Source: Sulfurimonadaceae bacterium
GTDB lineage: Bacteria > Campylobacterota > Campylobacteria > Campylobacterales > Sulfurimonadaceae
Length of the DNA: 15,396 nt
NCBI GenBank assembly: GCA_041548245.1
Contig: JBFESZ010000044.1
Span: forward strand, 1 to 15,396
Reading direction: 5' to 3'
Shown here: one piece after another, positions 230-15,334 of the stretch
Position numbering within the stretch: position 1 is the stretch's first letter
How the letters are laid out: the number at the start of each line of letters is the position of its first letter
Program-made: the position numbers and the translations under genes
The notes under the pieces: generated by a model
What the model was told of the DNA's origin: nothing
What the model saw: the letters and a program-made list of their open reading frames with translations, nothing else
Database searches by the model: none

Positions 230-1174
230 CTAATTCGTTTTTTGACGTTTCCTATGAAGGTTATTTACCGGAACGTAGAAGTCCAGATGGGAAATTCTCT
301 TGAGTGTGATGATTCCCTTGTTCAAGAGAGTGTTCAAGCGCTGTATAGATGATAGATCAAATAAAAGCCGGACATCATCCGGTGTCAAAGGACGTTTGTC
401 CAGTGTGTTGATTATCTCTTCATCTGTATATGAAGAGGGCTGCGATTTGACATTTTTTCTGGATGCGATATGAATTGGCAGGTCTGGGCTGAATTGTTGA
501 GAAATACGAAAGAGCTCGTCATAGGATACACCTTCGATAGGATAGGCGGGTGGTCTGTCTATGGTGCCCAGATCGATACGTTCACACTTGACCTGTTTTA
601 AGACTTCATTGAGTGCTTTGATCTCTTCATTAGTATCATTGAGTGTTTTGACAAATAGGATCTCGATGAAGAGTCTGCCCTTGAACTCCTGTGAGAAGGA
701 AATGACACTTTTAACCAATTGACTAAGGTCAATACTTTTATGTGGTCTATCTATCTTTTCAAAGACTTTTGGCGTAACAGCATCTAAAGAGAGTTTTACC
801 TGATCAAGGTGCAAAAGGCTTTCATAAGTTTTTTTGTCACTGAGTGTCGCGGAATTGGTAAGGATGAGGGTCTGCTTGTCACCTTTAAGACGATCAATCT
901 TAACAATGAGTTCGTCAAGGTACGGATAGAGACTCGGTTCACCGTTGGCCGTAAGGGTAATGACTTCTGTATTGGGATGTTCCTGCAGAGCCTCTTTGAG
1001 TTCGACTATGATCTCATTAGGAGTATGGGCTTTGGAATAAGTCTCAACTGTGGCTGCAGGAGCGAGTTCACAATAGAGACAGTCAAAGTTACACTGCTTC
1101 TCTTCAGGTGAGAGGTCTATACCGAGCGAGGTTCCAAAACGACGTGATGCTACAGGTCCAAATATAAATTTCAT
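230..1174 (-). CDS. Radical SAM protein (COG0731/Tyw1-like Fe-S oxidoreductase family), function unknown
   Basis: CxxxCxxC (CNFDCLYC), N-terminal GPVxSRRFGxSLGID and GEPSLY motifs. Start moved to ATG 1174 (MKFIFGP), preceded by AGGA; 314 aa. Confidence 0.9.
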   Translation of the reverse strand: MKFIFGPVASRRFGTSLGIDLSPEEKQCNFDCLYCELAPAATVETYSKAHTPNEIIVELKEALQEHPNTEVITLTANGEPSLYPYLDELIVKIDRLKGDKQTLILTNSATLSDKKTYESLLHLDQVKLSLDAVTPKVFEKIDRPHKSIDLSQLVKSVISFSQEFKGRLFIEILFVKTLNDTNEEIKALNEVLKQVKCERIDLGTIDRPPAYPIEGVSYDELFRISQQFSPDLPIHIASRKNVKSQPSSYTDEEIINTLDKRPLTPDDVRLLFDLSSIQRLNTLLNKGIITLKRISHLDFYVPVNNLHRKRQKTN

Positions 1175-1216
1175 GTGACATCCTAACGCATGAATGTTTA
1201 AAATCACGTATGGTGC

Positions 1217-1222
1217 ATTGTA
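1217..1222 (-). promoter_or_regulatory. Possible -10 element for the radical SAM gene
   Basis: TACAAT on the minus strand in the short gap after the kinase stop, about 45 nt upstream of the ATG; no clear -35. Confidence 0.35.
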
Positions 1223-1235
1223 GAATAGATAGGAG

Positions 1236-3710
1236 TTATTTTATGAGATATTTGAGGAGAGTTTCGAAGAGTTTTGTATTTTCAATAGGCTTGTGAAGGT
1301 AGTCGTTCATACCGACGTCATAGGCTTTTTGGATGTCATCTTCCATTACATTGGCACTCAGAGCGATAATCGGTATCTTAGGGTCAATCTCTCGGATCTT
1401 TTGCGTGGCTTGATAACCGTTCATGTTTGGCATCTGTATATCCATAAGGATCATATCATAATCGTTTTGTTTAAACTTCTCCAGCGCGATTTGGCCGTCT
1501 TGGGCGAAATCAAGCATCAAGGTGCTCTCTTCAAGTAACATCTGCAGCAGCATTTGGTTCATCTTATTGTCTTCTGCGACAAGGATTCTTGCACTCGCAA
1601 TTGCATGGACCCGTGTCTCCAATTGTTCATATTCTACAGAAGCATCCGATTCGTCAATGTGTGTCTTAGACTTTATAGGAGGCAGAGGCAGTTCAAACAT
1701 GAAGGTACTACCAACACCAAGCTCACTCTTTACAGATATACTCCCGCCCATCATCTCTACAAGCTTTTTTGATATAGCCAGTCCAAGACCAGTACCTCCG
1801 TATTTCCTGCTTGTGCTCATATCAGCCTGAGAAAAGTTTTGAAAGAGTAGTTGTATCTCATTCTCATTTAAACCGATACCGGTGTCTTCAACCTCAAAGC
1901 GTATTGTATCGGAACCGGCATCGATGACACGCAAAGAAACAGTTCCGATGTGCGTAAACTTGATGGCATTGTTAAGCAGATTGGTAAGCACCTGAGTTAT
2001 TCTCATTGGATCACCTATACGCTGAGAGTTCTTTATATCCTTGCAGTTAATGTTCAAGGACAGTTTTTTTTCTTTTGCATTTTCCTTGAGGATGTCACGG
2101 ACATTTTGAGTAAGATCCTTTAAATCGAACTCTATGTGTTCAATCGGCATCTTTCCGGCTTCGATTTTAGAGATGTCCAAGATGTCATTAATCACATGTA
2201 GCAATATTTCAGATGTGGCACTGATGTTTTGTAACAATTTTTTTTGTTTCTCATCGTATTCATTTTTAAGTGCCATATGTGTAAAACCGATGATTCCATT
2301 AAGCGGTGTTCTGATTTCATGTGACATATTGGAGAGGAAGAGACTTTTGAACTCAAGTGCTTCTTGTGTCTTTCGTTTCTCCTCTTCTAGCTCTTTTTCA
2401 TTACTGATGTCTTCGCGATAAGCGTTATAACCTATGATTTCACCGTCTGAATCAAGTTCGGGTGTAATAGTAAGGTGTATCCAGTAAAAACTATTGTCTT
2501 TTTTTCGATTTTTAAGTTCTCCCGTCCAAGTTTTTTTACTCGTTATTGTCTTCCACAGGTCATCAAAGATCTTAGGGTCATTTTCGTGATGTTTAAAGAC
2601 GGTATGGGTTAGACCGATAAGCTCGTCTTTTGAGTATCCTGAAAGTTTTTCAAGTGCAGTGCTGACATAAGTGATCCTTCCCTGTTCATCCGTCTTGGAA
2701 AATATCACATGCTTGTCCAGTATGTCGTTTATCTTCTTTATCTCGAGGTCTTTGCGAATGTTGCTCATCACACCACGATACCAATAGAAGATAGCCAAGG
2801 AGATCATCAAAAAAGCGAGGCTGACAATTATAGTTGAGTCGAGTACCTTTTGCTCATATTTTCTCTCTCTTTTATGTAGATCAGATTCGAGAATCGTCAT
2901 ATATTCATTATTAAGTTGCTGGGTGAGGGTCAAGAGTTTGGAAAAGCTGTGTTTATGGTCTATAGTTTTGTGTATCACTTGCTCAAATGCTGTCAGTGAA
3001 GTCATTTCATCCGCTTGGTATTTAAGCTCGGCATTGATCTGATTCATCAGACTGCGTAGGCCTATTGTGTCATCATAGGGTTTTAAGAGTCGGATGATCC
3101 CGCTTATCTCTTCAGCACTGAGTTCCACCAGTTTGTTCTGCTGAGTATAAAGTGCTTTTTCATAATGTGAAAGAGAGCCCTTTGTCTTAAATTTATTGAT
3201 AATGTTGTTGATGGTATGCAAACTGATGAGGAATTCCGGCATATAGTGTGTTGTCAGTGCAGAGAGAAAATAGAGTTTTCGATCGTATTCAAATAAGAGC
3301 TTGGAGGTGTCACCGGCAGTATAGTTTTCATGGTTAAGATAATCTAAAAAGGCGTAAAGATCTTCTTCTTCATGTTCTGATGTGGAAATCCTCTTTAGGT
3401 AGGCATAGAAGTTCTGGTTTTTAAACTGCGGGTATTCGTCGTGCAGTACATAGATAGCATTGATGTCATCAAGCATCGATTTTTTAATCAAAGATAACTT
3501 GAGAGGATTTTCCACTATACTTAAAGCACCTGCGTATACAGCAGTACTGATGCTTAAGTGATATATCCCTTTTAGGTATTGGATACCTGCAAGTTCACTT
3601 TGTGCCAGCGTTATTTGGTCCTTATACTCTTTTGTGACCTTGATATAGAGTGTTGATATGGAGATAACGACAATAATATAGGCCAGCAGGAATCTCAAGA
3701 AAATATTCAT
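1236..3710 (-). CDS. Membrane-bound hybrid sensor histidine kinase (TM-periplasmic helical domain-TM-PAS-HisKA-HATPase_c-REC)
   Basis: Two hydrophobic segments flanking about 270 aa; PAS (YVSTALEKLSGYSKDELIG...WTGELKNRKKDNSFYW); H-box FLSNMSHEIRTPLNG; N/G1/G2 boxes (NLLNNAIKFT, DTGIG, GGTGLGL); receiver (AEDN, LMDIQMP, KP). Confidence 0.95.
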   Translation of the reverse strand: MNIFLRFLLAYIIVVISISTLYIKVTKEYKDQITLAQSELAGIQYLKGIYHLSISTAVYAGALSIVENPLKLSLIKKSMLDDINAIYVLHDEYPQFKNQNFYAYLKRISTSEHEEEDLYAFLDYLNHENYTAGDTSKLLFEYDRKLYFLSALTTHYMPEFLISLHTINNIINKFKTKGSLSHYEKALYTQQNKLVELSAEEISGIIRLLKPYDDTIGLRSLMNQINAELKYQADEMTSLTAFEQVIHKTIDHKHSFSKLLTLTQQLNNEYMTILESDLHKRERKYEQKVLDSTIIVSLAFLMISLAIFYWYRGVMSNIRKDLEIKKINDILDKHVIFSKTDEQGRITYVSTALEKLSGYSKDELIGLTHTVFKHHENDPKIFDDLWKTITSKKTWTGELKNRKKDNSFYWIHLTITPELDSDGEIIGYNAYREDISNEKELEEEKRKTQEALEFKSLFLSNMSHEIRTPLNGIIGFTHMALKNEYDEKQKKLLQNISATSEILLHVINDILDISKIEAGKMPIEHIEFDLKDLTQNVRDILKENAKEKKLSLNINCKDIKNSQRIGDPMRITQVLTNLLNNAIKFTHIGTVSLRVIDAGSDTIRFEVEDTGIGLNENEIQLLFQNFSQADMSTSRKYGGTGLGLAISKKLVEMMGGSISVKSELGVGSTFMFELPLPPIKSKTHIDESDASVEYEQLETRVHAIASARILVAEDNKMNQMLLQMLLEESTLMLDFAQDGQIALEKFKQNDYDMILMDIQMPNMNGYQATQKIREIDPKIPIIALSANVMEDDIQKAYDVGMNDYLHKPIENTKLFETLLKYLIK

Positions 3711-3715
3711 ACACT

Positions 3716-3724
3716 ATATTAGCA
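3716..3724 (-). promoter_or_regulatory. Candidate extended -10 promoter (TGcTAATAT) for the kinase, 5 nt before the ATG
   Basis: Minus strand TGCTAATAT-AGTGT-ATG; no Shine-Dalgarno upstream. Confidence 0.45.
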
Positions 3725-3759
3725 TGATTTTTATGAAATCTATGAAGAGGAAAAGTACA

Positions 3760-3789
3760 GCTGTGAAGCCTTAGAAAAGCCTCCACAGC
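3760..3789 (-). terminator. Stem-loop after hemE, likely intrinsic terminator
   Basis: Minus strand GCTGTGGAGGCTT-TTCT-AAGGCTTCACAGC (13 positions, one G-U pair, one mismatch), followed by TGTACTTTT; starts 18 nt after the hemE stop. Confidence 0.55.
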
Positions 3790-3807
3790 AAGCGGTAGTT
3801 GAATTTC

Positions 3808-4848
3808 TTAGCGGGCAGTCATCTCATGAACGAGATCGACAAGGTATTTTGCGTTATCAGGGTCAAGGTCCGGGAGCATACCGTGACCAAGGTTGAAGAT
3901 ATGCCCAGGCGCTTTACCCATGACATTGATGATGTGCTCTACACCTTCTTTTGTCGCTTCTTGGGAGTAAAGACGTGTCGGTTCCATGTTGCCTTGAAGT
4001 ACATATTTGTCGCCAAGTTTTGCTTTTGCTAGTTCAATAGGTGTTGACCAGTCGACACAGAAGACATCAAAATTTCCACCTATCTGGGCAACTTTGTCAA
4101 GGTACCCCGAGATGCCTTTAGGGAAAAGAAGAACAGGGATGTGAGGATATTTGGCTTTGACATGCTCGGCAATACGCAGCATATATTTCCATGAAAAATC
4201 AATAAAGGCAGACTCTTCAAGCGCGGAAGCCCATGAGTCAAAGATCTGCACCGCATTGGCTCCTGCCTCGATCTGTTTGCAGAGATAGTCTTGAACGACA
4301 ATCGTCAGTTTTTCAAGAAGTTTATGCATGAAATCAGGGTCTGTGGCAATCTTCTTTTTAACGATGGCATAGGTCTTGGTTCCTTGGCCCTCGATCATGT
4401 AAGTGGCCAAAGTCCACGGACTACCTGTAAAACCGATCAGGGCTTTATCTGCACGCAGGCGCGACCGCACTTTTGCGACAGTGTCGTAGACATAGACAAG
4501 TTTGTCTGCAGCTTTCATATCCAGTGCGTCAAGGTCGGCATCAGTAGAGATAGGTTCAGGGAACTTTGGTCCAAAGCCAGGGATAAACTCCAGTTTCATA
4601 CCCATTTCATTAGGTACGACAAGAATGTCCGAGAAGAGAATGGCCGCATCCACATCCAAGCGTTCAACAGGCTGAATGGTGACTTCACAGGCTTTTTCCG
4701 GATCATGACAAAGGTTCAAAAAGTTACCCGCTTCTTTGCGAACAGCCATATATTCTGGAAGGTAACGGCCGGCTTGGCGCATCATCCAGATTGGAGTGTG
4801 AGTTGTTGGTTTCCTAAAACATGCATCGACAAAGATCATATTTGACAT
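3808..4848 (-). CDS. hemE: Uroporphyrinogen decarboxylase
   Basis: Signatures [53 protein letters not shown]; purine-rich RBS AAGGG. Confidence 0.97.
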
Positions 4849-4890
4849 ATGGTTTTCCCTTTTATAAGTTGATTTCTTACGTAAAACGTA

Positions 4891-5409
4891 TTAGTGTTTT
4901 TTTCCTACTTTTCCTAAAAAGTACAATCCGACCGCTACGGCCATGATAGAGAGTGCAAAATAGAGCATATCCAGAGCCCCATGATATTCAGTGTGCCCAA
5001 CTTTTTGGAAAAAACCGACGACGAGTACCATCACGATGACTTTGGAAATCTTGTCTTTAAGTTGATCAAGCGAATGAATAGCTAATATCCTGTTCTCTTC
5101 GCCCGGTTCATTTCTGGCTGCATCGATCTCCGAGATAAAGAGTTCATACAGACCAAATGCGAACAGAAGCATCACAACACCAATAAGATAAAGATCAACG
5201 GCACCAATGATACCGCCGACGACATCTTCATGGAAGTTTTCAGGATGGGCACCGGCCGAGTAAGTGTTAAAAACAAATTGAGCCGTATGAAAAATATCAA
5301 CGCTTGCCACTGCAAAGAGAACGATCCCACCGATCAGACCGAAGACAACGGCAAGAAGAACAATAAAACGTGAGCTCCAAAGAGTGTTTTCAAAAAGTTT
5401 TTCCAACAT
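4891..5409 (-). CDS. YqhA family (UPF0114) membrane protein
   Basis: Four hydrophobic helices with FENTLWSSR, VDLYLI, GLYELFIS and LDQLKDKI motifs. Start ATG 5409, 1 nt after the asd stop, with GGAGG upstream; 172 aa. Confidence 0.85.
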   Translation of the reverse strand: MLEKLFENTLWSSRFIVLLAVVFGLIGGIVLFAVASVDIFHTAQFVFNTYSAGAHPENFHEDVVGGIIGAVDLYLIGVVMLLFAFGLYELFISEIDAARNEPGEENRILAIHSLDQLKDKISKVIVMVLVVGFFQKVGHTEYHGALDMLYFALSIMAVAVGLYFLGKVGKKH

Positions 5410-5410
5410 A

Positions 5411-6439
5411 TTATGCCTCCTGTTGCTCAACCCATTTTTGGGCAATCCTTACCGCATTAGTCGCAGCACCGACGCGTAGGTTGTCAGCAACAATGAAGAG
5501 GTGAAGAACATTCTTTCTATAGATGTCATTTCGGACACGCCCGACAAAAGTCTCATCTCTATCAACACAGCTTGCTGGCATTGGATAGAGACTCTCAGCA
5601 GGGTTGTCAAGGACAATGACATTTGGTGCTTTAGAAAGGATCTCTCGTGCCTCAGCCGCATCGACATCAGCGTCAAACGTCAGTGTTAGAGACTCAGCGT
5701 GACCGCGGAGTGTAGGTACACGTACACAGGTCGCAGACACCTCTACTTTTTTACCGAGGATCTTGACCGTCTCATTGACCATTTTCATCTCTTCTTTTGT
5801 ATAACCGTTCTCCATAAAGACATCGATTTGAGGGATGACGTTTAAGGCGATTTGATGAGGAAAGGCTTTATGCTCAGACTCGTCCAACTTGAACTGGAAG
5901 AAGTCTTGCATCTGAGTGACCAGCTCTTCCATCGCTTTCTTGCCCCCGCCTGAAGTCGCTTGATAAGTTGAAACATCGACACGTTGAAGATCATAGGCCT
6001 CATCCAATGCTTTAAGGACCTGTACCATCTGGATGGTCGAACAATTAGGGTTTGCGATGATTCCTGTCGTTTTCCATTCGCGTATCTCTTGTGGATTGAC
6101 TTCAGGAACCACAAGAGGAACATCCTCGTTCATTCTGAAGTGGCTGGTGTTATCAATGACAACGGCACCGGCTTCGGCAGCAAAGGGTGCATATTTAGCA
6201 GAGATTGAACCACCGGCAGAAAAGAGAGCGATCTCGATCTCTTCCTCAGTAAAGACACTCTCGGTCAGTTCTTTGATGACAAGCTTATCACCGTTAAACT
6301 CAATAGTATTTCCTGCTGAACGCTCGCTGGCCAATGGCACAATTTTATTGTATGGAAAGTCTATCTCTTCAAAGATGCGAAAGATTTCTTCTCCCACAGC
6401 TCCAGTGGCACCGACTACGGCTACATTATACTTTTTCAA
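5411..6439 (-). CDS. asd: Aspartate-semialdehyde dehydrogenase
   Basis: VVGATGAVG Rossmann motif, catalytic ANPNCST, YQATSGGG, CVRVP..RGH, DNLRVGAA; TTG start with GAGGA RBS. Confidence 0.97.
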   Translation of the reverse strand: MKKYNVAVVGATGAVGEEIFRIFEEIDFPYNKIVPLASERSAGNTIEFNGDKLVIKELTESVFTEEEIEIALFSAGGSISAKYAPFAAEAGAVVIDNTSHFRMNEDVPLVVPEVNPQEIREWKTTGIIANPNCSTIQMVQVLKALDEAYDLQRVDVSTYQATSGGGKKAMEELVTQMQDFFQFKLDESEHKAFPHQIALNVIPQIDVFMENGYTKEEMKMVNETVKILGKKVEVSATCVRVPTLRGHAESLTLTFDADVDAAEAREILSKAPNVIVLDNPAESLYPMPASCVDRDETFVGRVRNDIYRKNVLHLFIVADNLRVGAATNAVRIAQKWVEQQEA

Positions 6440-6452
6440 TTTACTGTCCTCT

Positions 6453-7751
6453 CTAAGAATTTATCTTATATTGTTGAATTTTTTTATTTAAAACGGTTAT
6501 AGTCATCCCTAAGGTCTCTGCACTTTTGTCTAAGTCCATATCGCATGAGTTGAGTACTTCTTCGATCAGTTCTTTTTCCATATCTGTGATGCTTTTAGGC
6601 TTTTGACGGCTATCGAGGAAAAGTTCATCAACAGTGATGGAGTTGCCTTCGCTCAATATCGTGGCCCGCTCAACGACAGAGACCAGTTCTCTGACGTTTC
6701 CTGGCCAGTTGTATGCCAGAAGTGCCTCTTCGGCTTGCTTGTCAAATTGTTTGGACTCAAAACCATACTTTTCGCAATTGTCCGCAAGTACATTGGCCGC
6801 GATATCAAGAATCTCTTCACGCCTCTGTCTCAAAGGAGGGATAGAGACGGGGATAGTGTTAAGACGATAATAGAGGTCCTCTCTGAATTCGCCTTGCTCA
6901 ATATGCTTATGCAGATTGGCATTTGTCGCAGAGATGATACGTACATCTATCTTGATCGGTTTTTGTGAGCCAAGGCGCTGAACCTCTCTCTCCTGCAGGA
7001 CACGCAAGAGTTTAGCCTGAACAGGGTAAGGCATTTCGCCGATTTCATCTAGAAACAGCGTACCGCCATCAGCGAGTTCAAATTGACCAGGTTTGGCCTG
7101 TATAGCATCAGTAAAAGCACCCTTTTCAAAGCCGAAAAGCTCACTTTCGATCAAGTTGTCCGGGATCGCTGCCATATTGATAGCGACAAAAGGTTTTTTG
7201 CTTCTGGGTGAGACATCATGAATAAACTTCGCAAAAACCTCTTTGCCCACACCGCTTTCACCAGTCAAAAGAATGGATGCATCTGTCTTGGCCGCTTTTT
7301 CAGCCATCTTGACAGCTTTTTCAAGAGCAGGCGAACTCGCGGTAAATGAAGAAGTCGAACACTGCTTTTTGCTCTTTTTAGCGGGAGACTTTTTAACAAC
7401 TTCTTGGATTTTGTGCGAGCGCTTGATCGCTTTTACAAGGGTCTCTATCTCAAAGGGTTTAAGTAAAAAGTCTTTAACACCTAACTGAATAGAGTCAATT
7501 GCTTTTTGCAAGGTTGCATTGCCCGTCATGATGATGACTTCATACTTTCCACCGAGTTTCTCAACGAACTCTATACCATCCATACCTGGCATATTGATGT
7601 CAGTAACGATCAGGTCGAAACTCTCATCAAGCTTTGGAAGGGCATCTTTGGCACTTTTAAAGCTGACGATTTCAAACTCATCATAATCCCCCATAGCTAT
7701 TTCAAGGGATTTACGCATATTTATATCGTCTTCGACAATCGCTATTTTCAC
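6453..7751 (-). CDS. flgR: Sigma54-dependent response regulator (REC-AAA+-Fis-like HTH), flagellar FlgR
   Basis: Receiver (EDD, TDINMP, KP), Walker A GESGVGKE, GAFTDA loop, Walker B LFLDEI, FREDLYYRL; position between flgQ and asd as in Campylobacter; GTG start with AAGGA. Confidence 0.88.
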   Translation of the reverse strand: MKIAIVEDDINMRKSLEIAMGDYDEFEIVSFKSAKDALPKLDESFDLIVTDINMPGMDGIEFVEKLGGKYEVIIMTGNATLQKAIDSIQLGVKDFLLKPFEIETLVKAIKRSHKIQEVVKKSPAKKSKKQCSTSSFTASSPALEKAVKMAEKAAKTDASILLTGESGVGKEVFAKFIHDVSPRSKKPFVAINMAAIPDNLIESELFGFEKGAFTDAIQAKPGQFELADGGTLFLDEIGEMPYPVQAKLLRVLQEREVQRLGSQKPIKIDVRIISATNANLHKHIEQGEFREDLYYRLNTIPVSIPPLRQRREEILDIAANVLADNCEKYGFESKQFDKQAEEALLAYNWPGNVRELVSVVERATILSEGNSITVDELFLDSRQKPKSITDMEKELIEEVLNSCDMDLDKSAETLGMTITVLNKKIQQYKINS

Positions 7752-7777
7752 GAAATTCCTTTACTACAAGAGATCGA

Positions 7778-8170
7778 TTATTTTAATATTAATCGCGTGA
7801 TTGTAGCGTAATCATCATTAAAGTCGACTGTTATATAGGTGGGAGGAAGTGTGAGGTCGATCAAAGAAGAGCTTTTAAGTTCACTGATCTTTTCATGTGA
7901 ACGCGTATGTACTCCATGGAACATCAAGAACTCGAGGATTTTATCTTTGTGTTGGTGCATGATTACATTGAGATTTGCTTCTTCAGGCAAATGGATATTC
8001 AGTGAGTCGGCAGGAGTGGCTTGAACTTCACTCATTGCCTGTGAAAAGTGGTAAGACTCAGATATGACTACCGCATTTTTGATTTGCGCGCGGTAGCTTA
8101 AGATGTAGGTTTCAGAAGCTTGCAAGCATGCAGAAGCAAGAATTAGCGCGATGCTAAGATAGATTGCCAT
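7778..8170 (-). CDS. flgQ: Exported protein, probable FlgQ (FlgP partner)
   Basis: Signal-peptide-like N-terminus; overlaps the flgP 3' end by 28 nt; syntenic position between flgP and flgR. Assignment rests mainly on synteny. Confidence 0.6.
   Translation of the reverse strand: MAIYLSIALILASACLQASETYILSYRAQIKNAVVISESYHFSQAMSEVQATPADSLNIHLPEEANLNVIMHQHKDKILEFLMFHGVHTRSHEKISELKSSSLIDLTLPPTYITVDFNDDYATITRLILK
7800..7805 (-). promoter_or_regulatory. Candidate internal sigma70 -10 for flgR
   Basis: Minus strand gcTACAAT within the flgQ 3' end, about 50 nt upstream of the flgR GTG; a second TAAAAT lies at 7785-7780. Confidence 0.4.
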
Positions 8171-8748
8171 TGCTCAGGGTTGATTACCAGTTCCATTTCT
8201 ACTTCGCACAGACCGTCTTTAAATACAGTCTCAATAAGTTCAGCTTCAGCGATAACGGCATCAACAAAGGTTCTCACTTCAGAACGTTGTACCATCATGT
8301 TTTTGATTTTATCAGAACCTTCTATTCTAACACCTTTGACTTTTTCGGCAAGTAGTCTGTATGCATCTGCGATTGCCGCACGTTTTGCTAGGGCATAAGC
8401 TTGAGCAGGTGAAGAAGTCATAGTTGGAGCTACTCCCTGGCCGATGACATTGATACGAATAGTCTTATAGCTGTCTGGTGAAAGCTGCTTTGTCGGTTGT
8501 TTCATCTCATGCGGACAGACCTCTGCTTTGTTCGGTTCTCTCATTTCCATCTTGGCTTCAGGTTCAGGCGCCGTTTCAGTTTTGGCTTCAGGAGCAGGGG
8601 TGACAACAACAGGTTGTACGACGACTGGTTGAACGACAACAGGTTCAATGGTCTCCAGTTTTTTTGGCTCTTGAGGCGTGTTTGTCGGTGCTTCATCAGC
8701 CATCAAAAGAGCTGATAAAAGGGCACTCAATAGTAGAGTTTTGTGCAT
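8143..8748 (-). CDS. flgP: FlgP / LPP20-family flagellar basal-disk protein
   Basis: C-terminal domain VIGQGVAP...AQAYALAKRAAIADAYRLLAEKVKGVRIEGSDKIKNMM closely resembles C. jejuni FlgP as I recall it; directly downstream of gyrA; sigma54 promoter upstream. Confidence 0.85.
   Translation of the reverse strand: MHKTLLLSALLSALLMADEAPTNTPQEPKKLETIEPVVVQPVVVQPVVVTPAPEAKTETAPEPEAKMEMREPNKAEVCPHEMKQPTKQLSPDSYKTIRINVIGQGVAPTMTSSPAQAYALAKRAAIADAYRLLAEKVKGVRIEGSDKIKNMMVQRSEVRTFVDAVIAEAELIETVFKDGLCEVEMELVINPEQWQSILASR
8602..8646 (-). repeat. Degenerate 15-bp tandem repeat encoding EPVVV-QPVVV-QPVVV in FlgP
   Basis: Three 15-nt units with synonymous variation; TTGGCTTCAGG (PEAK) also recurs at 8552-8562 and 8582-8592. 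Confidence 0.7.
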
Positions 8749-8783
8749 AATACATCCTTACATCTTAATTGTTGTAAAGGTTT

Positions 8784-8801
8784 AAGCAATGATTGTTCCA
8801 A
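8784..8801 (-). promoter_or_regulatory. sigma54 (-24/-12) promoter upstream of flgP
   Basis: Minus strand TTGGAACAATCATTGCTT: GG-N10-GC, matching the epsilonproteobacterial TTGGAAC-N5-TTGCTT form; 35 nt upstream of the ATG. Confidence 0.88.
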
Positions 8802-8869
8802 GTTGAGAGGTGTTTGATAAAGGGGAAAAAGGAAGAGATGACTCAAGCCCTTTTATTAGGAAGTGAAGG

Positions 8870-11338
8870 TTATTCTTCACCTTCTTCGAAGTCATCATCA
8901 TCTTTTTCCTCTTTTGGACAGCGGGAGATACTGACAACATCATCACCTTTGATGATGAATACACCAGAAGTATTACGTCCAGATTTAGAGATAGACTGCA
9001 TATCTACACGGATCATCTTGCCTTTTTTGGTTAATGCCATCATATCCATGGATTCGTCAACCATCAGACATCCGACAACTGCATTTCCTGTTTTCGCATT
9101 GAGTTTCATTGCAATAACACCTGAACCTGCACGGTTTGTCAGGCGGTACTCTTCTGCCGTTGTACGTTTTCCAATACCTTTCTCACTGACAGTCAGGATC
9201 TCTTGTTCATCATCGCGGATTATATTGGCATCGATGACAAAGTCACCTTCATGTTTGAACTTGATACCTCTAACACCGCGAGTAGAACGTCCCTGATCTC
9301 TTGTTTTACCGATCTCAAACTTGATACATTGTGCTTGGCGAGTAAGGATAAAGAGATATTGCGTATCAATGGTCGCAATTTTTGCTGTGACAAGGGTATC
9401 ATCCTCATCAAGTACGATAGCACGGACGCCGCTTGAGCGCACATTAGAGAACTCGCTCAGTTTTGTACGTTTGACGATACCGTTTTTGGTAAAGAAGACT
9501 AAAGAGTTCTCTTCGTTGAAGTCAGTTGTCGGGATGATAGACTGGATCTCTTCATCTTGTACGAGGTTGATCAGGTTGACGATTGCCTTACCTTTAGCCG
9601 TACGAGACCCTTCTGGGATGCGGTACACTTTTAACCAGTGAAGCTGACCACGATTTGTTACGATGAGAAGCGTGTCGTGGGTATTGCAGGTAAAGAAGCT
9701 TTCAATAAAATCATCATCATAAGTAGTTACAGCAGTCTTCCCTTTTCCACCGCGATTTTGTTTCTCGTATTGAGCAAGAGGCACACGTTTGATGTACCCA
9801 CGGTGAGTGATGGTCACAACCATCGGTTCATTAGGAATAAGGTCTTCGATATCGATATCATCATAGTTGTCCACGATATCAGTAAGACGAGGTGTAGTCA
9901 AGGCCTCTTTTGCCTCTGCTAACTCTTCTTTGATGATGTTTTGAAGGACTTCTTCGCTTTTTAGGATTGACTCAAGGTACTCAATAAGCGCATGTAGTTC
10001 TTTAAGCTCATTCTCTATCTTCTCACGCTCAAGTCCGGTAAGCTTTTGAAGACGCATATCCAAGATAGCTTGTGCTTGAAGTTCTGAGAACGAAAATTCG
10101 TTCATCAAGCCCTCTTTGGCATCAGCTGTGTCTTTTGAGCCGCGGATCAGTTTGATGATTGCATCGATATGATCAAGTGCCTTTTTCAGACCCTCTAAGA
10201 TATGTGCTTTGGCTTTGGCTTTTTCAAGGTCAAAGATAGTACGGCTGATGATGACCGTTTTACGATGTGCAATAAAGGTGTTAAGCACTTCCATCAAATT
10301 GAAGACTTTAGGCTCTTGGTTTTTGATAGCAAGCATGATGATACCAAAGGTCGTCTGCATGTTTGTCTGCTTGTAGAGATTGTTCAAGACGATCTCTTGC
10401 ATTGCATCACGTTTAAGTTCGATTACCACACGGATACCTTCACGGTCAGACTCGTCTCGTATCTCAGAGATACCTTCAATTGCCTTGTCTCTGACTAATA
10501 AAGCGATTGACTCGATTAGACGTGCTTTATTGACTTGGTAAGGAAGCTCATCGATGACAATGACATCCTTATTCCCTTTTTTCTCAATATGTGTCTTCGC
10601 GCGCAGTTTGATACGCCCACGACCTGTCTCGTAAGCATCCAGGATACCTTTTTGACCATAAATAGTAGCACCTGTAGGGAAGTCCGGTGCTTTGATAAAC
10701 TGCATGATGTCCTGTAGGGATGCCTTAGGGTTCTCAAGAAGGTGAATAAGTCCATTCAAGACTTCACCAGGATTATGAGGAGGGATGTTGGTTGCCATAC
10801 CAACGGCAATACCAGAAGATCCATTGATAAGCAAGTTAGGAACACGGGTAGGGAAGACAGAAGGTTCCTGTGTCGTAGCATCATAGTTGTCGATCATATC
10901 AACGGTATCTTTGTCCAGGTCCTTCATGAGTTCACCGGAGTATTTGGTCATACGTGCTTCCGTATAACGCATTGCTGCTGCATTATCGCCATCAACAGAA
11001 CCGAAGTTTCCCTGACCGTCGACTAAGGTCATACGCATTGAGAAGTCTTGTGCCATACGGACAAGGGCATCATAGACAGAGTTGTCACCATGCGGGTGAT
11101 ATTGACCGATTACGTCACCGACGATACGGGCAGATTTTTTGTACTTAGCACCGGCTGAGAGGTTAAGTTTGTCCATTGCATATAAGATACGTCGGTGAAC
11201 CGGTTTCAATCCATCACGGACATCGGGCAGGGCACGACCAATGATAACACTCATCGAATAATCAAGGTAGGATGCCTTAACTGTGTCTTCTATATTAATA
11301 TTGTCAATATTCTGGCTGTTTTCCAGTAAATCGCTCAT
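8870..11338 (-). CDS. gyrA: DNA gyrase subunit A
   Basis: [22 protein letters not shown], catalytic AAMRYTE, GyrA-box QNRGGKG (gyrase rather than ParC), beta-pinwheel repeats, acidic tail; GAGGA RBS. Confidence 0.99.
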
Positions 11339-11521: not shown

Positions 11522-11562
11522 TGATTAAAAATTAATCACAAGTTTTGATTATTTAAAAATCA
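11522..11562. promoter_or_regulatory. Two tandem 17-bp palindromes TGATT-N7-AATCA (candidate operator of amtB)
   Basis: TGATTAA-AAA-TTAATCA (11522-11538) and TGATT-ATTTAAA-AATCA (11546-11562), 24-bp period, directly upstream of TATAAT. Confidence 0.65.
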
Positions 11563-11605: not shown

Positions 11606-12913
11606 ATGAAAAAAATGTTTGCAGCATTATTGCTTACTCCGCTTCTTGCATTAGCGGAAGAGACCCCGACTTTGGATACGGGAGATACGGCTTGGATGAT
11701 GGTGTCAACAGCATTTGTAATGTTGATGACACCAGCTGGTTTGGCACTGTTTTATGGTGGTATGACACGTGCAAAGAGCATGCTTAATACTTACCTTATG
11801 GTATTAGCGGCTTTTGTGGTCGGTTTTGTTGTATGGATTGCAGCAGGTTATTCAATCGCATTTGGTACGTCGGAAAGTGCTGGATTGCAAAAGGTCATGG
11901 GTGGTTTTGGACACCTTTTCTTAAACGGTATTACATGGAATGAGTTGAGTGGAACGTATCCAGCTTATGTGTTTATTGTATTTCAAGGTACATTTGCTGC
12001 TATTACTGTGGCTATTGCTTCGGGTTCTGTCATCGAGCGTATCAAGTTTTCGACATGGATCGTATTTGTGGCCATCTGGGGTCTTGTGGTTTATGCTCCG
12101 ATCACACACATGGTATGGGGTGGAGAAGGTGCGCTTCTGTTTGATGCAGGTGCTCTTGATTTCGCGGGTGGTACGGTCGTACACATGAATGGTGGTCTCG
12201 CCGGTCTTGTTCTGGCTATCTTGGTCGGTAAACGCATGGGTTATCCTAAAACAGCGATGAAGCCTGCTTCAGTTATTCTTACTGCTCTTGGTGCTGCACT
12301 CTTGTGGTTCGGATGGTACGGATTTAACGGTGGTTCTGCATTTGGTGCGAATTCAATTGCCGGTCTTGCTTTCTTGACAACGACAATTGCAGCTTCTGTT
12401 GCGGCACTAGCGTGGATGATTTTGGAATGGGTTACATATAAAAAACCCACACTTCTAGGGGCAGCGACAGGTGCTATCGCTGGTCTGGTTGCGATTACTC
12501 CAGCAGCCGGTTTCGTTGATGTCTCAGGTGCATTTATCATTGGTACAGCAGGGGCACTGTTTGCGTTCTTTGGTGTGACCGTATTGAAGAAGAAACTGGG
12601 ATTTGATGACTCCTTGGATGCTTTCGGAGTCCACTTTCTTGCAGGTCTATGGGGTGCATTGGCAACGGGTCTTTTCGCTCTTAAAGACAATGACCTTCTG
12701 TGGGATGGACCACTTAAAGAATCAGGTGACAGAATGGGACAATTCTTCGTACAAGTTGAATCTGTGGTCGTTGTTGGTCTATTCACACTTGTTGGTACGG
12801 TTGTCGTCTATTACATCGCAACGGCGATTACGGGTGGAAGCCGTGTGAGTGAAGATAATGAAGTCGCAGGTCTTGATGAGTCAGTTCACGGTGAACGTGG
12901 ATTCAACCTATAA
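11606..12913 (+). CDS. amtB: Ammonium transporter AmtB (canonical, with signal peptide)
   Basis: Signal peptide MKKMFAALLLTPLLALA; FQGTFA, HMVWGG, DFAGGTVVH, WFGWYGFNGGS, DDSLDAFGVH (twin His); C-terminal GLDESVHGE. Start ATG 11606 after AAGGA. Confidence 0.97.
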   Translation: MKKMFAALLLTPLLALAEETPTLDTGDTAWMMVSTAFVMLMTPAGLALFYGGMTRAKSMLNTYLMVLAAFVVGFVVWIAAGYSIAFGTSESAGLQKVMGGFGHLFLNGITWNELSGTYPAYVFIVFQGTFAAITVAIASGSVIERIKFSTWIVFVAIWGLVVYAPITHMVWGGEGALLFDAGALDFAGGTVVHMNGGLAGLVLAILVGKRMGYPKTAMKPASVILTALGAALLWFGWYGFNGGSAFGANSIAGLAFLTTTIAASVAALAWMILEWVTYKKPTLLGAATGAIAGLVAITPAAGFVDVSGAFIIGTAGALFAFFGVTVLKKKLGFDDSLDAFGVHFLAGLWGALATGLFALKDNDLLWDGPLKESGDRMGQFFVQVESVVVVGLFTLVGTVVVYYIATAITGGSRVSEDNEVAGLDESVHGERGFNL

Positions 12914-12917
12914 TTAA

Positions 12918-13310
<393 letters not shown>

Positions 13311-13329: not shown

Positions 13330-13363
13330 TCTTTTTTACTCCTGAGATAAGGAGTGGAAAAGA
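13330..13363 (+). other. RNA stem-loop 3' of the PII gene
   Basis: TCTTTTTTACTCCT-GAGATA-AGGAGTGGAAAAGA, 14 bp including two G-U pairs that form only on the + strand; no downstream U-tract. Confidence 0.55.
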
Positions 13364-13504: not shown

Positions 13505-14704
13505 ATGAATGAGTTTCTTCCGGTGAATGATTTTAAATATATCATTAATACCCTGTTTATTATCTTCTCTATGACACTTATTATTCTTATGGTACCAGGC
13601 TTTGCAATGTTGGAAGCTGGCCTTGTGCGTACAAAGAATGTCTCTACAGTACTGACAGTTAATACAATGATCTATGCGGTTGCATCGATGGCTTTTCTAC
13701 TCATCGGCTATCAATACGCTTTCGGTTCATGGGAAAACAGTTCGCTCAGTATGTATGCGGCATTTATGTTTCAAATGGCGTTTGTGGGTAAGACCATTAA
13801 TATTATGAGTGGTGGTGTGAGCGAACGTGTCCGTATTATTCCTTTGACGATGTTTACCGTCGTTATGGGTGCATTCATATATCCTACCGTTGTCAATATC
13901 ACCTGGGGTGCGAACTTTTTAGAGGGTACGGCTTTAGCGCTTAGTATGTATGATTTGGCTGGTTCAACCGTTATTCACTCAACCGGTGGCTGGGCACTGC
14001 TTGCGGCTATTTTGATCATGGGCTCACGTAAAGGGCGATATGTGAATGGAAAGGTACGCGTCATTCCAGCTTCTAATATCCCGCTGGTCGTGCTGGGAGC
14101 CTTTTTGCTTTGGATAGGATGGTTTGGCTTTAATGGCGGTTCGGTAGGTTCTATTTCGAGTAAAGAGGGTGCTGATGCCGTAGCCTTGACCATCATGAAC
14201 ACAAATACAGCTGGACTTTCCGGAGCGATTATGGCAGGTTTGGCAATGTATGTCCGCTATAGAAAATTTGATATCACTATGATACTAAACGGTGCTTTGG
14301 GTGGTCTTGTGGCTGTAACAGCTGGACCGGACCTGTATGATATTCATGAGCCGATCATCATCGGTGTTGTTGGCGGTGTGTTGGTCGTTATCGCGGTTCC
14401 TCTGTTTGATAAAATTCGTATCGACGACCCCGTAGGTGCTCTTTCTGTTCACTTGATCAATGGTATTTGGGGAACATTGGCAGTCGGCATCTTCGCCGCA
14501 AACCCGCACGAGGGAATCAGTTTGATGGGGCAACTTAAGGGTGTTGCTGTAGTGGGTGTATTCGCTTTTGTCTCTTCATTTCTAGTCATTTATCTTATCA
14601 ACAAGATTGTAAGGTTTAGAGCGAGTGATGAAGAGCAGGTCAAAGGGCTTGACATTGATGAATGCGGGCTTGAAGCTTACCCTGAACATCAACGTTCTAT
14701 CTAG
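13505..14704 (+). CDS. Second, divergent Amt-family transporter
   Basis: GFAMLEAGLVRTKN, DLAGSTVIH, WIGWFGFNGGS, NGALGGLVAVTA, DDPVGALSVH, GLDIDECG; no signal peptide; short first extracellular loop. Confidence 0.93.
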   Translation: MNEFLPVNDFKYIINTLFIIFSMTLIILMVPGFAMLEAGLVRTKNVSTVLTVNTMIYAVASMAFLLIGYQYAFGSWENSSLSMYAAFMFQMAFVGKTINIMSGGVSERVRIIPLTMFTVVMGAFIYPTVVNITWGANFLEGTALALSMYDLAGSTVIHSTGGWALLAAILIMGSRKGRYVNGKVRVIPASNIPLVVLGAFLLWIGWFGFNGGSVGSISSKEGADAVALTIMNTNTAGLSGAIMAGLAMYVRYRKFDITMILNGALGGLVAVTAGPDLYDIHEPIIIGVVGGVLVVIAVPLFDKIRIDDPVGALSVHLINGIWGTLAVGIFAANPHEGISLMGQLKGVAVVGVFAFVSSFLVIYLINKIVRFRASDEEQVKGLDIDECGLEAYPEHQRSI

Positions 14705-14707
14705 ACA

Positions 14708-15334
14708 ATGGAGAAAGAAAGGCTTCCATCTCTCTTAAAAGAGATATATCTTTTTGCTTTCATGAGTGAAAGTGAATTGGAAAGATTGGCAGAGATATCA
14801 TCGATTCATAATTATGAAAGTAACAGCTATCTCTTTATGCAGGGCGAGAAGAGTGAACACCTTTTGATCCTTATCGAGGGTGTTGTAAGTGTCTTTAAAC
14901 ATGACAGTAAGGGGAATGAGATCATCATAGGTCTCTTTCGACCCTATTCTTTACTGGCAGAACCTGCTATTTTAAAAGGAGTGCCTTTTCCCTCTACAGC
15001 CGTATTTAAGACAAAAGGTTCCGTCATCAAGGTCAAACTTAATGCATTTATAGAGGGTTTTTTAAGTGACCCGCATATCTCTTATGAGGTGATTCAATCC
15101 TTACTTGGAAAGATACAGCTTTTACAGCAGAATATTCATCTCAACATCGCCTCAAGCGCCAAAGAGAAGATCCTGCATTTTTACCAGCAAAATGGAACGC
15201 TTGAGAATGAGTTGAAACATTATGAGATAGCTTCGCTTTTAGGGATGACAGCCGAGACTTTTTCGCGTAATCTCAAGCAATTGCTTCTGGAAGAAAAGTT
15301 GATAAAGGGATCCTCGGGATATCAGATTGCTTGA
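14708..15334 (+). CDS. Crp/Fnr family transcriptional regulator (Cys-less; Dnr/NssR/HcpR-like)
   Basis: cNMP-binding-like barrel (YLFMQGE...GVVSVFK...GNEIII...LAE), HTH IASLLGMTAETFSR with the E-x-x-S-R recognition motif; no cysteine in the protein. Confidence 0.92.
   Translation: MEKERLPSLLKEIYLFAFMSESELERLAEISSIHNYESNSYLFMQGEKSEHLLILIEGVVSVFKHDSKGNEIIIGLFRPYSLLAEPAILKGVPFPSTAVFKTKGSVIKVKLNAFIEGFLSDPHISYEVIQSLLGKIQLLQQNIHLNIASSAKEKILHFYQQNGTLENELKHYEIASLLGMTAETFSRNLKQLLLEEKLIKGSSGYQIA

Follow-up and report, generated by a model that had tools for sequence, protein, structure and literature searches.

What does a lysine do in the pore helix of an ammonium transporter? The question is raised by a 15,396-nucleotide stretch of DNA from a Sulfurimonadaceae bacterium (hereafter, the window), in which four genes follow one another on the forward strand. 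The first (11606-12913) encodes an AmtB/MEP-class transporter with a signal-peptide-like N-terminus (TIGR00836, 418.8 bits, above the cut-off). A PII gene of the glnK/glnB type (12972-13310, PF00543) separates it from a second amt gene (13505-14704), and a gene for a Crp/Fnr-family regulator (14708-15334; cNMP-binding domain, HTH just below the cut-off) starts 3 nt past the stop codon of the latter. The second amt gene encodes a protein of 399 aa that matches PF00909 with 305.6 bits (gathering threshold 23.2) and shares ~30% identity with the neighbouring canonical AmtB. Its TM3 reads FQMAFVGKTINIMSGGVSER, and the equivalent segment of the neighbouring AmtB is FQGTFAAITVAIASGSVIER; the lysine, K96, is encoded by AAG at 13790-13792. 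The source genome (96% complete) gave two Amt matches, both in the window, and the closest named locus is that of a Sulfurimonadaceae MAG with 89% identity. The remainder of the window (230-11338) holds what we take, by translation, to be a radical SAM-like protein, a hybrid histidine kinase, hemE, asd, a sigma-54 response regulator and gyrA; these appear to be housekeeping and two-component genes.

The protein is predicted to adopt the 11-helix Amt fold. Its AF2 model has a pLDDT of 95.7, and fold searches with this model matched Amt structures with TM scores of 0.85-0.88 and Z scores of 54-57. The ESM Atlas search returned just generic ammonium-transporter clusters. By alignment, K96 corresponds to Ile110 of E. 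coli AmtB, as the first-pass annotation had proposed, with F93 at Phe107 and E37 at Tyr32. The alignment to Sd-Amt1 places W134 at W139, F93/F209 at F98/F221, H158/H316 (codons 13976-13978 and 14450-14452) at H169/H323, S213 at S225, and K96 at T101. Thus, the twin His pair, both gate Phe residues and the Trp, Asp and Ser of the recruitment site are retained, and W134, S213, D150, F93, F209, H158 and H316 are all kept in 96/96 members of the lysine-bearing clade. The change from HMVW in the neighbouring AmtB to NITW was also seen. By inspection, the protein lacks a signal peptide.

We then asked how far the lysine is conserved. It was present in all of the 120 nearest homologs, in 240/240 homologs after a deeper-branching set had been joined, and in 152 of 153 homologs of a third set, where the sole exception was a gap. 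Both Lys codons are in use (AAA 79, AAG 18, n=97). Because of this invariance and the use of both codons, we exclude sequencing error, chance or a private mutation as the origin of K96. For residue comparisons, 281 sequences were grouped by their identity to the query and not by the lysine, with 11/150 representatives and 7/148 locus ORFs left out as partial or off-length. In these groups, position 96 is Lys in 96/96 clade members, Thr in 11/11 sister paralogs, Thr in 118 of the 138 other AMT-class representatives, and Ile in 36/36 AmtB-type proteins. The earlier description of the position as normally hydrophobic therefore applies to the AmtB/MEP class and fails for the protein's own class. 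The first loop is very short, with a median of 11 residues in the clade compared to 26 in the sister paralogs and 35 in the AmtB-type proteins.

The family assignment had to be revised as well. The first-pass annotation regarded the protein as a divergent Amt paralog and took AmtB as its frame of reference. However, its best NCBIfam model is TIGR03644, the marine subtype, although the score of 391.1 bits lies below the cut-off of 514. Four other clade members scored 405-472 bits, again under 514, while 6/6 Thr-type relatives passed this cut-off and the sisters reached 554-670 bits. The AmtB/MEP-class models scored below their cut-offs too (PRK10666, 135.4 vs 657; TIGR00836, 310 vs 343.3). The exit-lining Tyr and Ser of the AmtB/MEP class (Tyr27 and Ser251 of Af-Amt1) are absent, with E37 and N262 in their place. 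Performing a quick maximum-likelihood analysis of 87 rows (midpoint root, SH-aLRT branch tests in place of a bootstrap), we find that the 25 clade members form one branch (SH-aLRT 100, stem 0.45), nested with TIGR03644 members in a branch that holds the Thr-type sisters and six representatives (SH-aLRT 100). The branch persisted after masking positions 52 and 96. Judged by these results, the lysine clade branched off, as a monophyletic group, from the marine-subtype AMT-class transporters. As Thr occupies position 96 in the sisters and in most of the AMT class, the change was from Thr to Lys.

The clade shares with the TIGR03644 marine subtype the missing signal peptide, E37, N53, S102 and N262, and a YPEF-type C-terminus. 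It differs by the Thr-to-Lys change at position 96, the loss of K52, a His-to-Asn change at position 131 in most members, and a first loop of 11-18 residues against a median of 26 in the sisters. Compared to E. coli AmtB (~30% identity), it has Glu for Tyr32, Lys for Ile110 and Asn for Ser263, and it is without the signal peptide. The similarities to E. coli AmtB and A. fulgidus Amt-1 lie in the fold (Z 54-55), the Trp/Ser/Asp site, the Phe gate, the twin His and the glnK linkage. The nearest described change at the position of K96 is the engineered I110N suppressor of E. coli AmtB.

The lysine clade is widespread in one phylum. A match of at least 59% identity was found in 94 of 401 Campylobacterota genomes, and K96 was read directly in 25/25 of those fetched among the 94. 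Two families (f2 and f3) lack the gene in all of their 276 genomes; elsewhere, 94 of 125, about three-quarters of the sampled genomes, carry it, and a broken copy is present in one further genome. Among the carriers with names are Sulfurimonas, Sulfurovum, Sulfuricurvum, Arcobacter, Sulfurospirillum, Nautilia, Caminibacter and Nitrosophilus. Searching 1.84 billion 50%-identity representatives, we found K96 in one of the best 150 matches. Scanning metagenomes for the lysine in its ancestral context yielded a single record out of 241 million, with a pattern frame that fits 95/138 representatives and 0/11 sisters. A few records are labelled outside the phylum (L053 and P0275); from its Sulfuricurvum-like sequence and gene order, L053 is probably mislabelled. 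Thus, in the data searched, the clade looks confined to Campylobacterota. A lysine-clade-like amt interrupted by TAA was seen at G057:C43:20481-21180.

Why would a lysine be fixed at this position? The AMT-class proteins have a side pocket below the His pair (PMC11152129). In Sd-Amt1, Glu29 is salt-bridged to Lys44 as long as the pocket is empty, and it takes an inward, sealing pose once NH4+ is bound (PMC11152129). The equivalents in the present protein are E37 (codon 13613-13615) and V52 (codon 13658-13660). Position 52 is Lys or Arg in 135/138 representatives and 11/11 sisters, and this TM2 switch residue was found in none of the 240 clade homologs. Taking the three positions together, E37 with K/R52 and without K96 is the pattern of 134/138 AMT-class representatives and of all the 11 sister paralogs. 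E37 with K96 and without K52 is the pattern of 96/96 clade members, repeated in 240/240 homologs. Only two of the 138 representatives have E37 with neither lysine, so nearly all E37 sequences carry exactly one; the AmtB-type proteins (36/36) are without E37, K52 and K96 alike. This reciprocal loss of K52 beside a kept E37 offers a structural reason for K96.

We therefore favour, with somewhat better than even confidence, the reading that the protein imports ammonium under nitrogen limitation and that K96 is a relocated counter-charge for E37, which replaces the TM2 lysine and keeps a disused side pocket closed. NH4+ would be recruited at W134/S213/D150 and would then pass the Phe gate and the His pair and move out to the cytoplasm. 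K96, a tethered amine on the pore side, would stand in for the Lys44-type lysine and hold E37 in its sealing pose without substrate. A fixed charge beside the His pair would probably alter affinity, pH dependence or charge coupling.

The geometry of TM3 is consistent with this pairing. A helical-wheel projection puts K96 at -60 degrees, with the pore face (F89, F93, I100) on one side of it and the pocket ligand N99 (codon 13799-13801; Thr104 in Sd-Amt1, Asn or Ser in the clade) on the other. In a crude ideal-helix model, the K96 amine comes within 2.7-2.8 Å of Asn99 and remains ~5.4-5.9 Å from an N1-like point, a gap that a bridging carboxylate could span. As the amine reaches N99 and not N1, the model is in line with a cluster of K96, E37 and N99 where the pocket opens. 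We also considered that the tethered amine might occupy N1 itself; this was not supported, as the same ideal-helix geometry leaves 5.4 Å at best.

Several findings count against the swap. It is a single event on the tree, and a tree-based co-change test had one independent pair (p=1). The clade stem is long and carries at least 10 diagnostic changes. The sole K96 record found outside the clade, L113, retains K52 and D56. Growth was impaired by substitutions at Q57, N80 and D83 of AtAMT1;1 (PMC13745463), and the equivalents of Q57 and D83 are missing in the lysine clade and in the sister paralogs. Q30, K52 and D56 of the side pocket are gone in the clade; the Gln and Asp had already disappeared in the sisters and the marine subtype. 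L113 (LULJ01000267.1) is itself a lone AMT-class gene whose Lys codon, AAA, is one base from Thr, and it may be an error or a rare variant.

The same position permits a different role. K96 was said to lie on the pore side of the helix, and the helical wheel bears this out, with the residue within 40-60 degrees of F93 and I100. Ile110 of E. coli AmtB sits across the pore from the His positions, I110N rescues double-acidic His mutants (PMC3355798), and Ile110 contacts the substrate in simulations (PMC3647058). As Ile110 faces the His pair, a lysine there could obstruct or retune the pore. K96 might then act in the lumen on ammonium import, as a proton relay or as a barrier to cations, so that transport becomes electroneutral or excludes K+/Na+ more strictly, with the loss of K52 being incidental. 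The ammonium-uptake context described below fits this equally. However, it would leave the invariant, buried E37 without its usual partner, and a Lys side chain would be expected to obstruct the narrow pore. We consider the lumen role unlikely. Ammonium uptake by one mechanism or the other, K96-E37 pairing or K96 in the lumen, is in our judgement quite probable.

The best sequence and fold matches of the protein are Sd-Amt1 (PDB 8qj3/8qj4) and Ks-Amt5 (6eu6), the best receptor match having an E value of 3e-57, a Z score of 56.6 and an rmsd of 2.1 Å over 373 residues. The Z scores to Sd-Amt1 and Ks-Amt5 are ~1 unit above that to AmtB. These nearest structures are those of non-conducting sensors (PMC5764959). 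The protein could thus be a non-conducting receptor or PII scaffold, in which K96 imitates bound ammonium or blocks the pore and the signal passes via GlnK. N262, which matches the exit-narrowing Asn269 of Sd-Amt1, and the frequent PII neighbour would agree with such a role. However, the Asn is general to the AMT class (131/138), including proven transporters (PMC11152129). The ORF ends at 14704 without a fused signalling domain, cyclase or kinase, and ORFs of the clade from the loci are likewise ~388-404 aa. The sensing site is also broken. Glu29, Asn45, Ser107 and Asn269 of Sd-Amt1 have their equivalents in the lysine-clade protein, but Gln22, Lys44, Asp48 and Thr104 are replaced by V, V, I and N, and Thr101 by Lys. 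The ammonium-receptor N1/N2 signature, QX6EX15NX2D...TX2S/T, here becomes V30, E37, N53, I56, N99 and S102, with the Gln, Asp and Thr missing. The lysine-clade gene is, moreover, the sole Amt in nine of ten genomes tested. A receptor or scaffold has a slim chance on this evidence.

The genomic neighbourhood was examined next. The lysine-clade gene has a PII neighbour in 75 of the 86 loci whose flanks are long enough, and it is preceded by an AmtB-type gene in 33/75 loci and by a Thr-type marine paralog in 9/75. The Crp-family gene was considered as a conserved partner and rejected, as the pairing occurs in 2/81 loci only (the window and L001). Two short genes (L076:4495-5232 and L057:2016-2717) often stand directly upstream of the amt operon, in 20/81 and 16/81 loci, respectively; both gave faint sigma-54-activator and PAS matches, below the cut-off.

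In 52 of 100 loci, an operator-like palindrome lies in the 250 nt upstream of the gene, compared to 1.1% of shuffles (two mismatches allowed, four duplicate loci removed, related loci not being independent). In the source genome, the palindrome stands in front of amtB, glnA and nitrate/nitrite assimilation genes, among them a siroheme synthase/nitrite reductase pair and an assimilatory nitrate reductase-like gene. The sites are at 11522-11562 in the window, as two 17-bp copies upstream of amtB (11522-11538 and 11546-11562), and at G000 C2:8445, C102:188 and 5520, C47:11983 and 12287, and C14:14453. No palindrome was found directly upstream of the lysine-clade gene in the window or in 48/100 loci, and its absence here counts against the favoured reading. 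The gap between the PII gene and the lysine-clade gene contains a weak 14-bp hairpin (13330-13363, forward strand, z -1.73), a possible terminator or repeat. It was absent from the terminator-scan predictions, and the output of the promoter/terminator scan was at chance level. Two palindrome copies precede an Opr-like porin gene, which may be an unrecognised member of the nitrogen regulon.

The palindrome also bears on the idea of an ammonium release valve in nitrate-ammonifying or nitrogen-fixing cells, as reported for a bacterial Rh protein. Export can be achieved by retuning an Amt/Rh pore (bioRxiv 10.64898/2026.09.24.754001), and a positive charge close to the exit could work against the inward flow of cations. 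However, the sharing of a palindrome with glnA, amtB and nitrate assimilation genes points to a gene that is expressed under nitrogen shortage, and D150, which was required for inward uptake in the same preprint, is invariant in the clade. We regard a release valve as very improbable.

Some genomes carry the lysine form alone. Among the 11 genomes with a single match, ten were tested with PF00909; the lysine form was the only Amt in nine and was accompanied by a broken remnant in one. The ten belong to six genera and three families, with five in one genus, and four are single-contig. An adjacent PII gene was found in all ten, and so was glnA. A broken remnant of another amt was seen at G106:C15:4764-5154. 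Cells are able to grow without any Amt when ammonium is high. The neighbouring PII gene, the nitrogen-regulon palindrome and the sole-Amt status in 9/10 genomes together point to ammonium uptake as the context of the gene. On the other side, most carriers of the lysine clade keep a second Amt, and the two proteins may thus differ in task or in kinetics. The altered transport properties expected from the K96 charge would explain why the second Amt is kept in most genomes.

Does the lysine change the substrate instead? Hydroxylamine, nitrite or another small nitrogen compound could be carried, and nitrite and hydroxylamine had been put forward in the first-pass annotation. A NirA ortholog (E under 1e-100) turned up in 44 of the 93 carriers examined and was as common among hand-picked non-carriers (11/26). 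NirB was above the cut-off in four of the 49 NirA-less carriers, bringing the carriers with NirA or NirB to 48/93. With these queries, neither cytoplasmic nitrite reductase was found in the other 45 or in any of the 11 single-match genomes. Hcp was present in 22 of the 80 carriers searched (of 94), in 2/11 single-match genomes and in all six carriers tested from family f5, and it was not found in the source genome. Ammonium is the substrate with a sink in every genome tested.

The proposal that hydroxylamine enters via AmtB homologs was made for Nautilia (PMC3701875), and one of its two homologs belongs to the clade. We find that the N. profundicola AmH record P0510 has the clade motif and contains the translations of primer pair 397 of that study. 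The amt transcripts on nitrate exceeded those on ammonium 4.5-fold (P<0.08) and 10.3-fold (P>0.10) (PMC3701875). Neither rise reached P<0.05 and both paralogs were affected; text and table label the two amt genes inconsistently, so the fold value of the clade member is not assignable. Higher expression on a poorer nitrogen source is also expected of an ammonium scavenger. The cation-recruiting W134, D150 and S213 are, moreover, invariant. A changed substrate is thus rather improbable, and the likelihood of a sensor or altered-substrate role is lowered by these results.

A bolder formulation covers several of these roles. The clade may represent a naturally occurring Amt whose conduction path contains a tethered amine. 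K96, set against the twin-His pair or E37, would then alter what the channel conducts or how, and this state would be fixed across most free-living Campylobacterota. The protein might be an ammonia channel that is electroneutral or cation-proof, a carrier of hydroxylamine, or a GlnK receptor with a permanent ligand. This formulation is tentative, and on balance we doubt it. If the protein is truly an ordinary importer with a structural salt bridge, as in the favoured reading, it would be of modest interest, mostly to those who work on Amt proteins.

The clade bears on two open questions, the handling of charge by Amt proteins and the role of the N1/N2 pocket in AMT-class proteins without a signalling domain. 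It is a natural experiment in which the path residues are kept while the lysine has moved between helices round the same glutamate. The Thr-type sister paralogs, often in the same operon, are natural controls. The hosts are dominant organisms of vents, sulfidic sediments and aquifers. In databases, the protein carries the plain label of an ammonium transporter. In genome papers, the Campylobacterota genes are named AmtB (PMC2628731, PMC5401914, PMC4674564). Our literature search, with little coverage of subscription papers, gave no description of the lysine clade or of a Lys at this position, and no measurement of transport by a clade member. The word lysine was not found in PMC10433425, PMC10794816 and PMC4814505, and two reviews were also without I110 or Campylobacter.

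Two further residues drew our attention. The AmtB C-terminal tail region contacts loops and PII. In the lysine clade, this tail carries a Cys at position 387 (14663-14665 in the window) in 90/96 members; the residue is His in most Amts and Thr in the sisters. Among the AmtB-type paralogs, 8/36 have Gly for the conserved Glu of the 'ER' motif at the end of TM3 (E121 in E. coli); these ORFs (L020, L023, L025, L028, L034, L044, L045 and L064) are all from Sulfurovum records.
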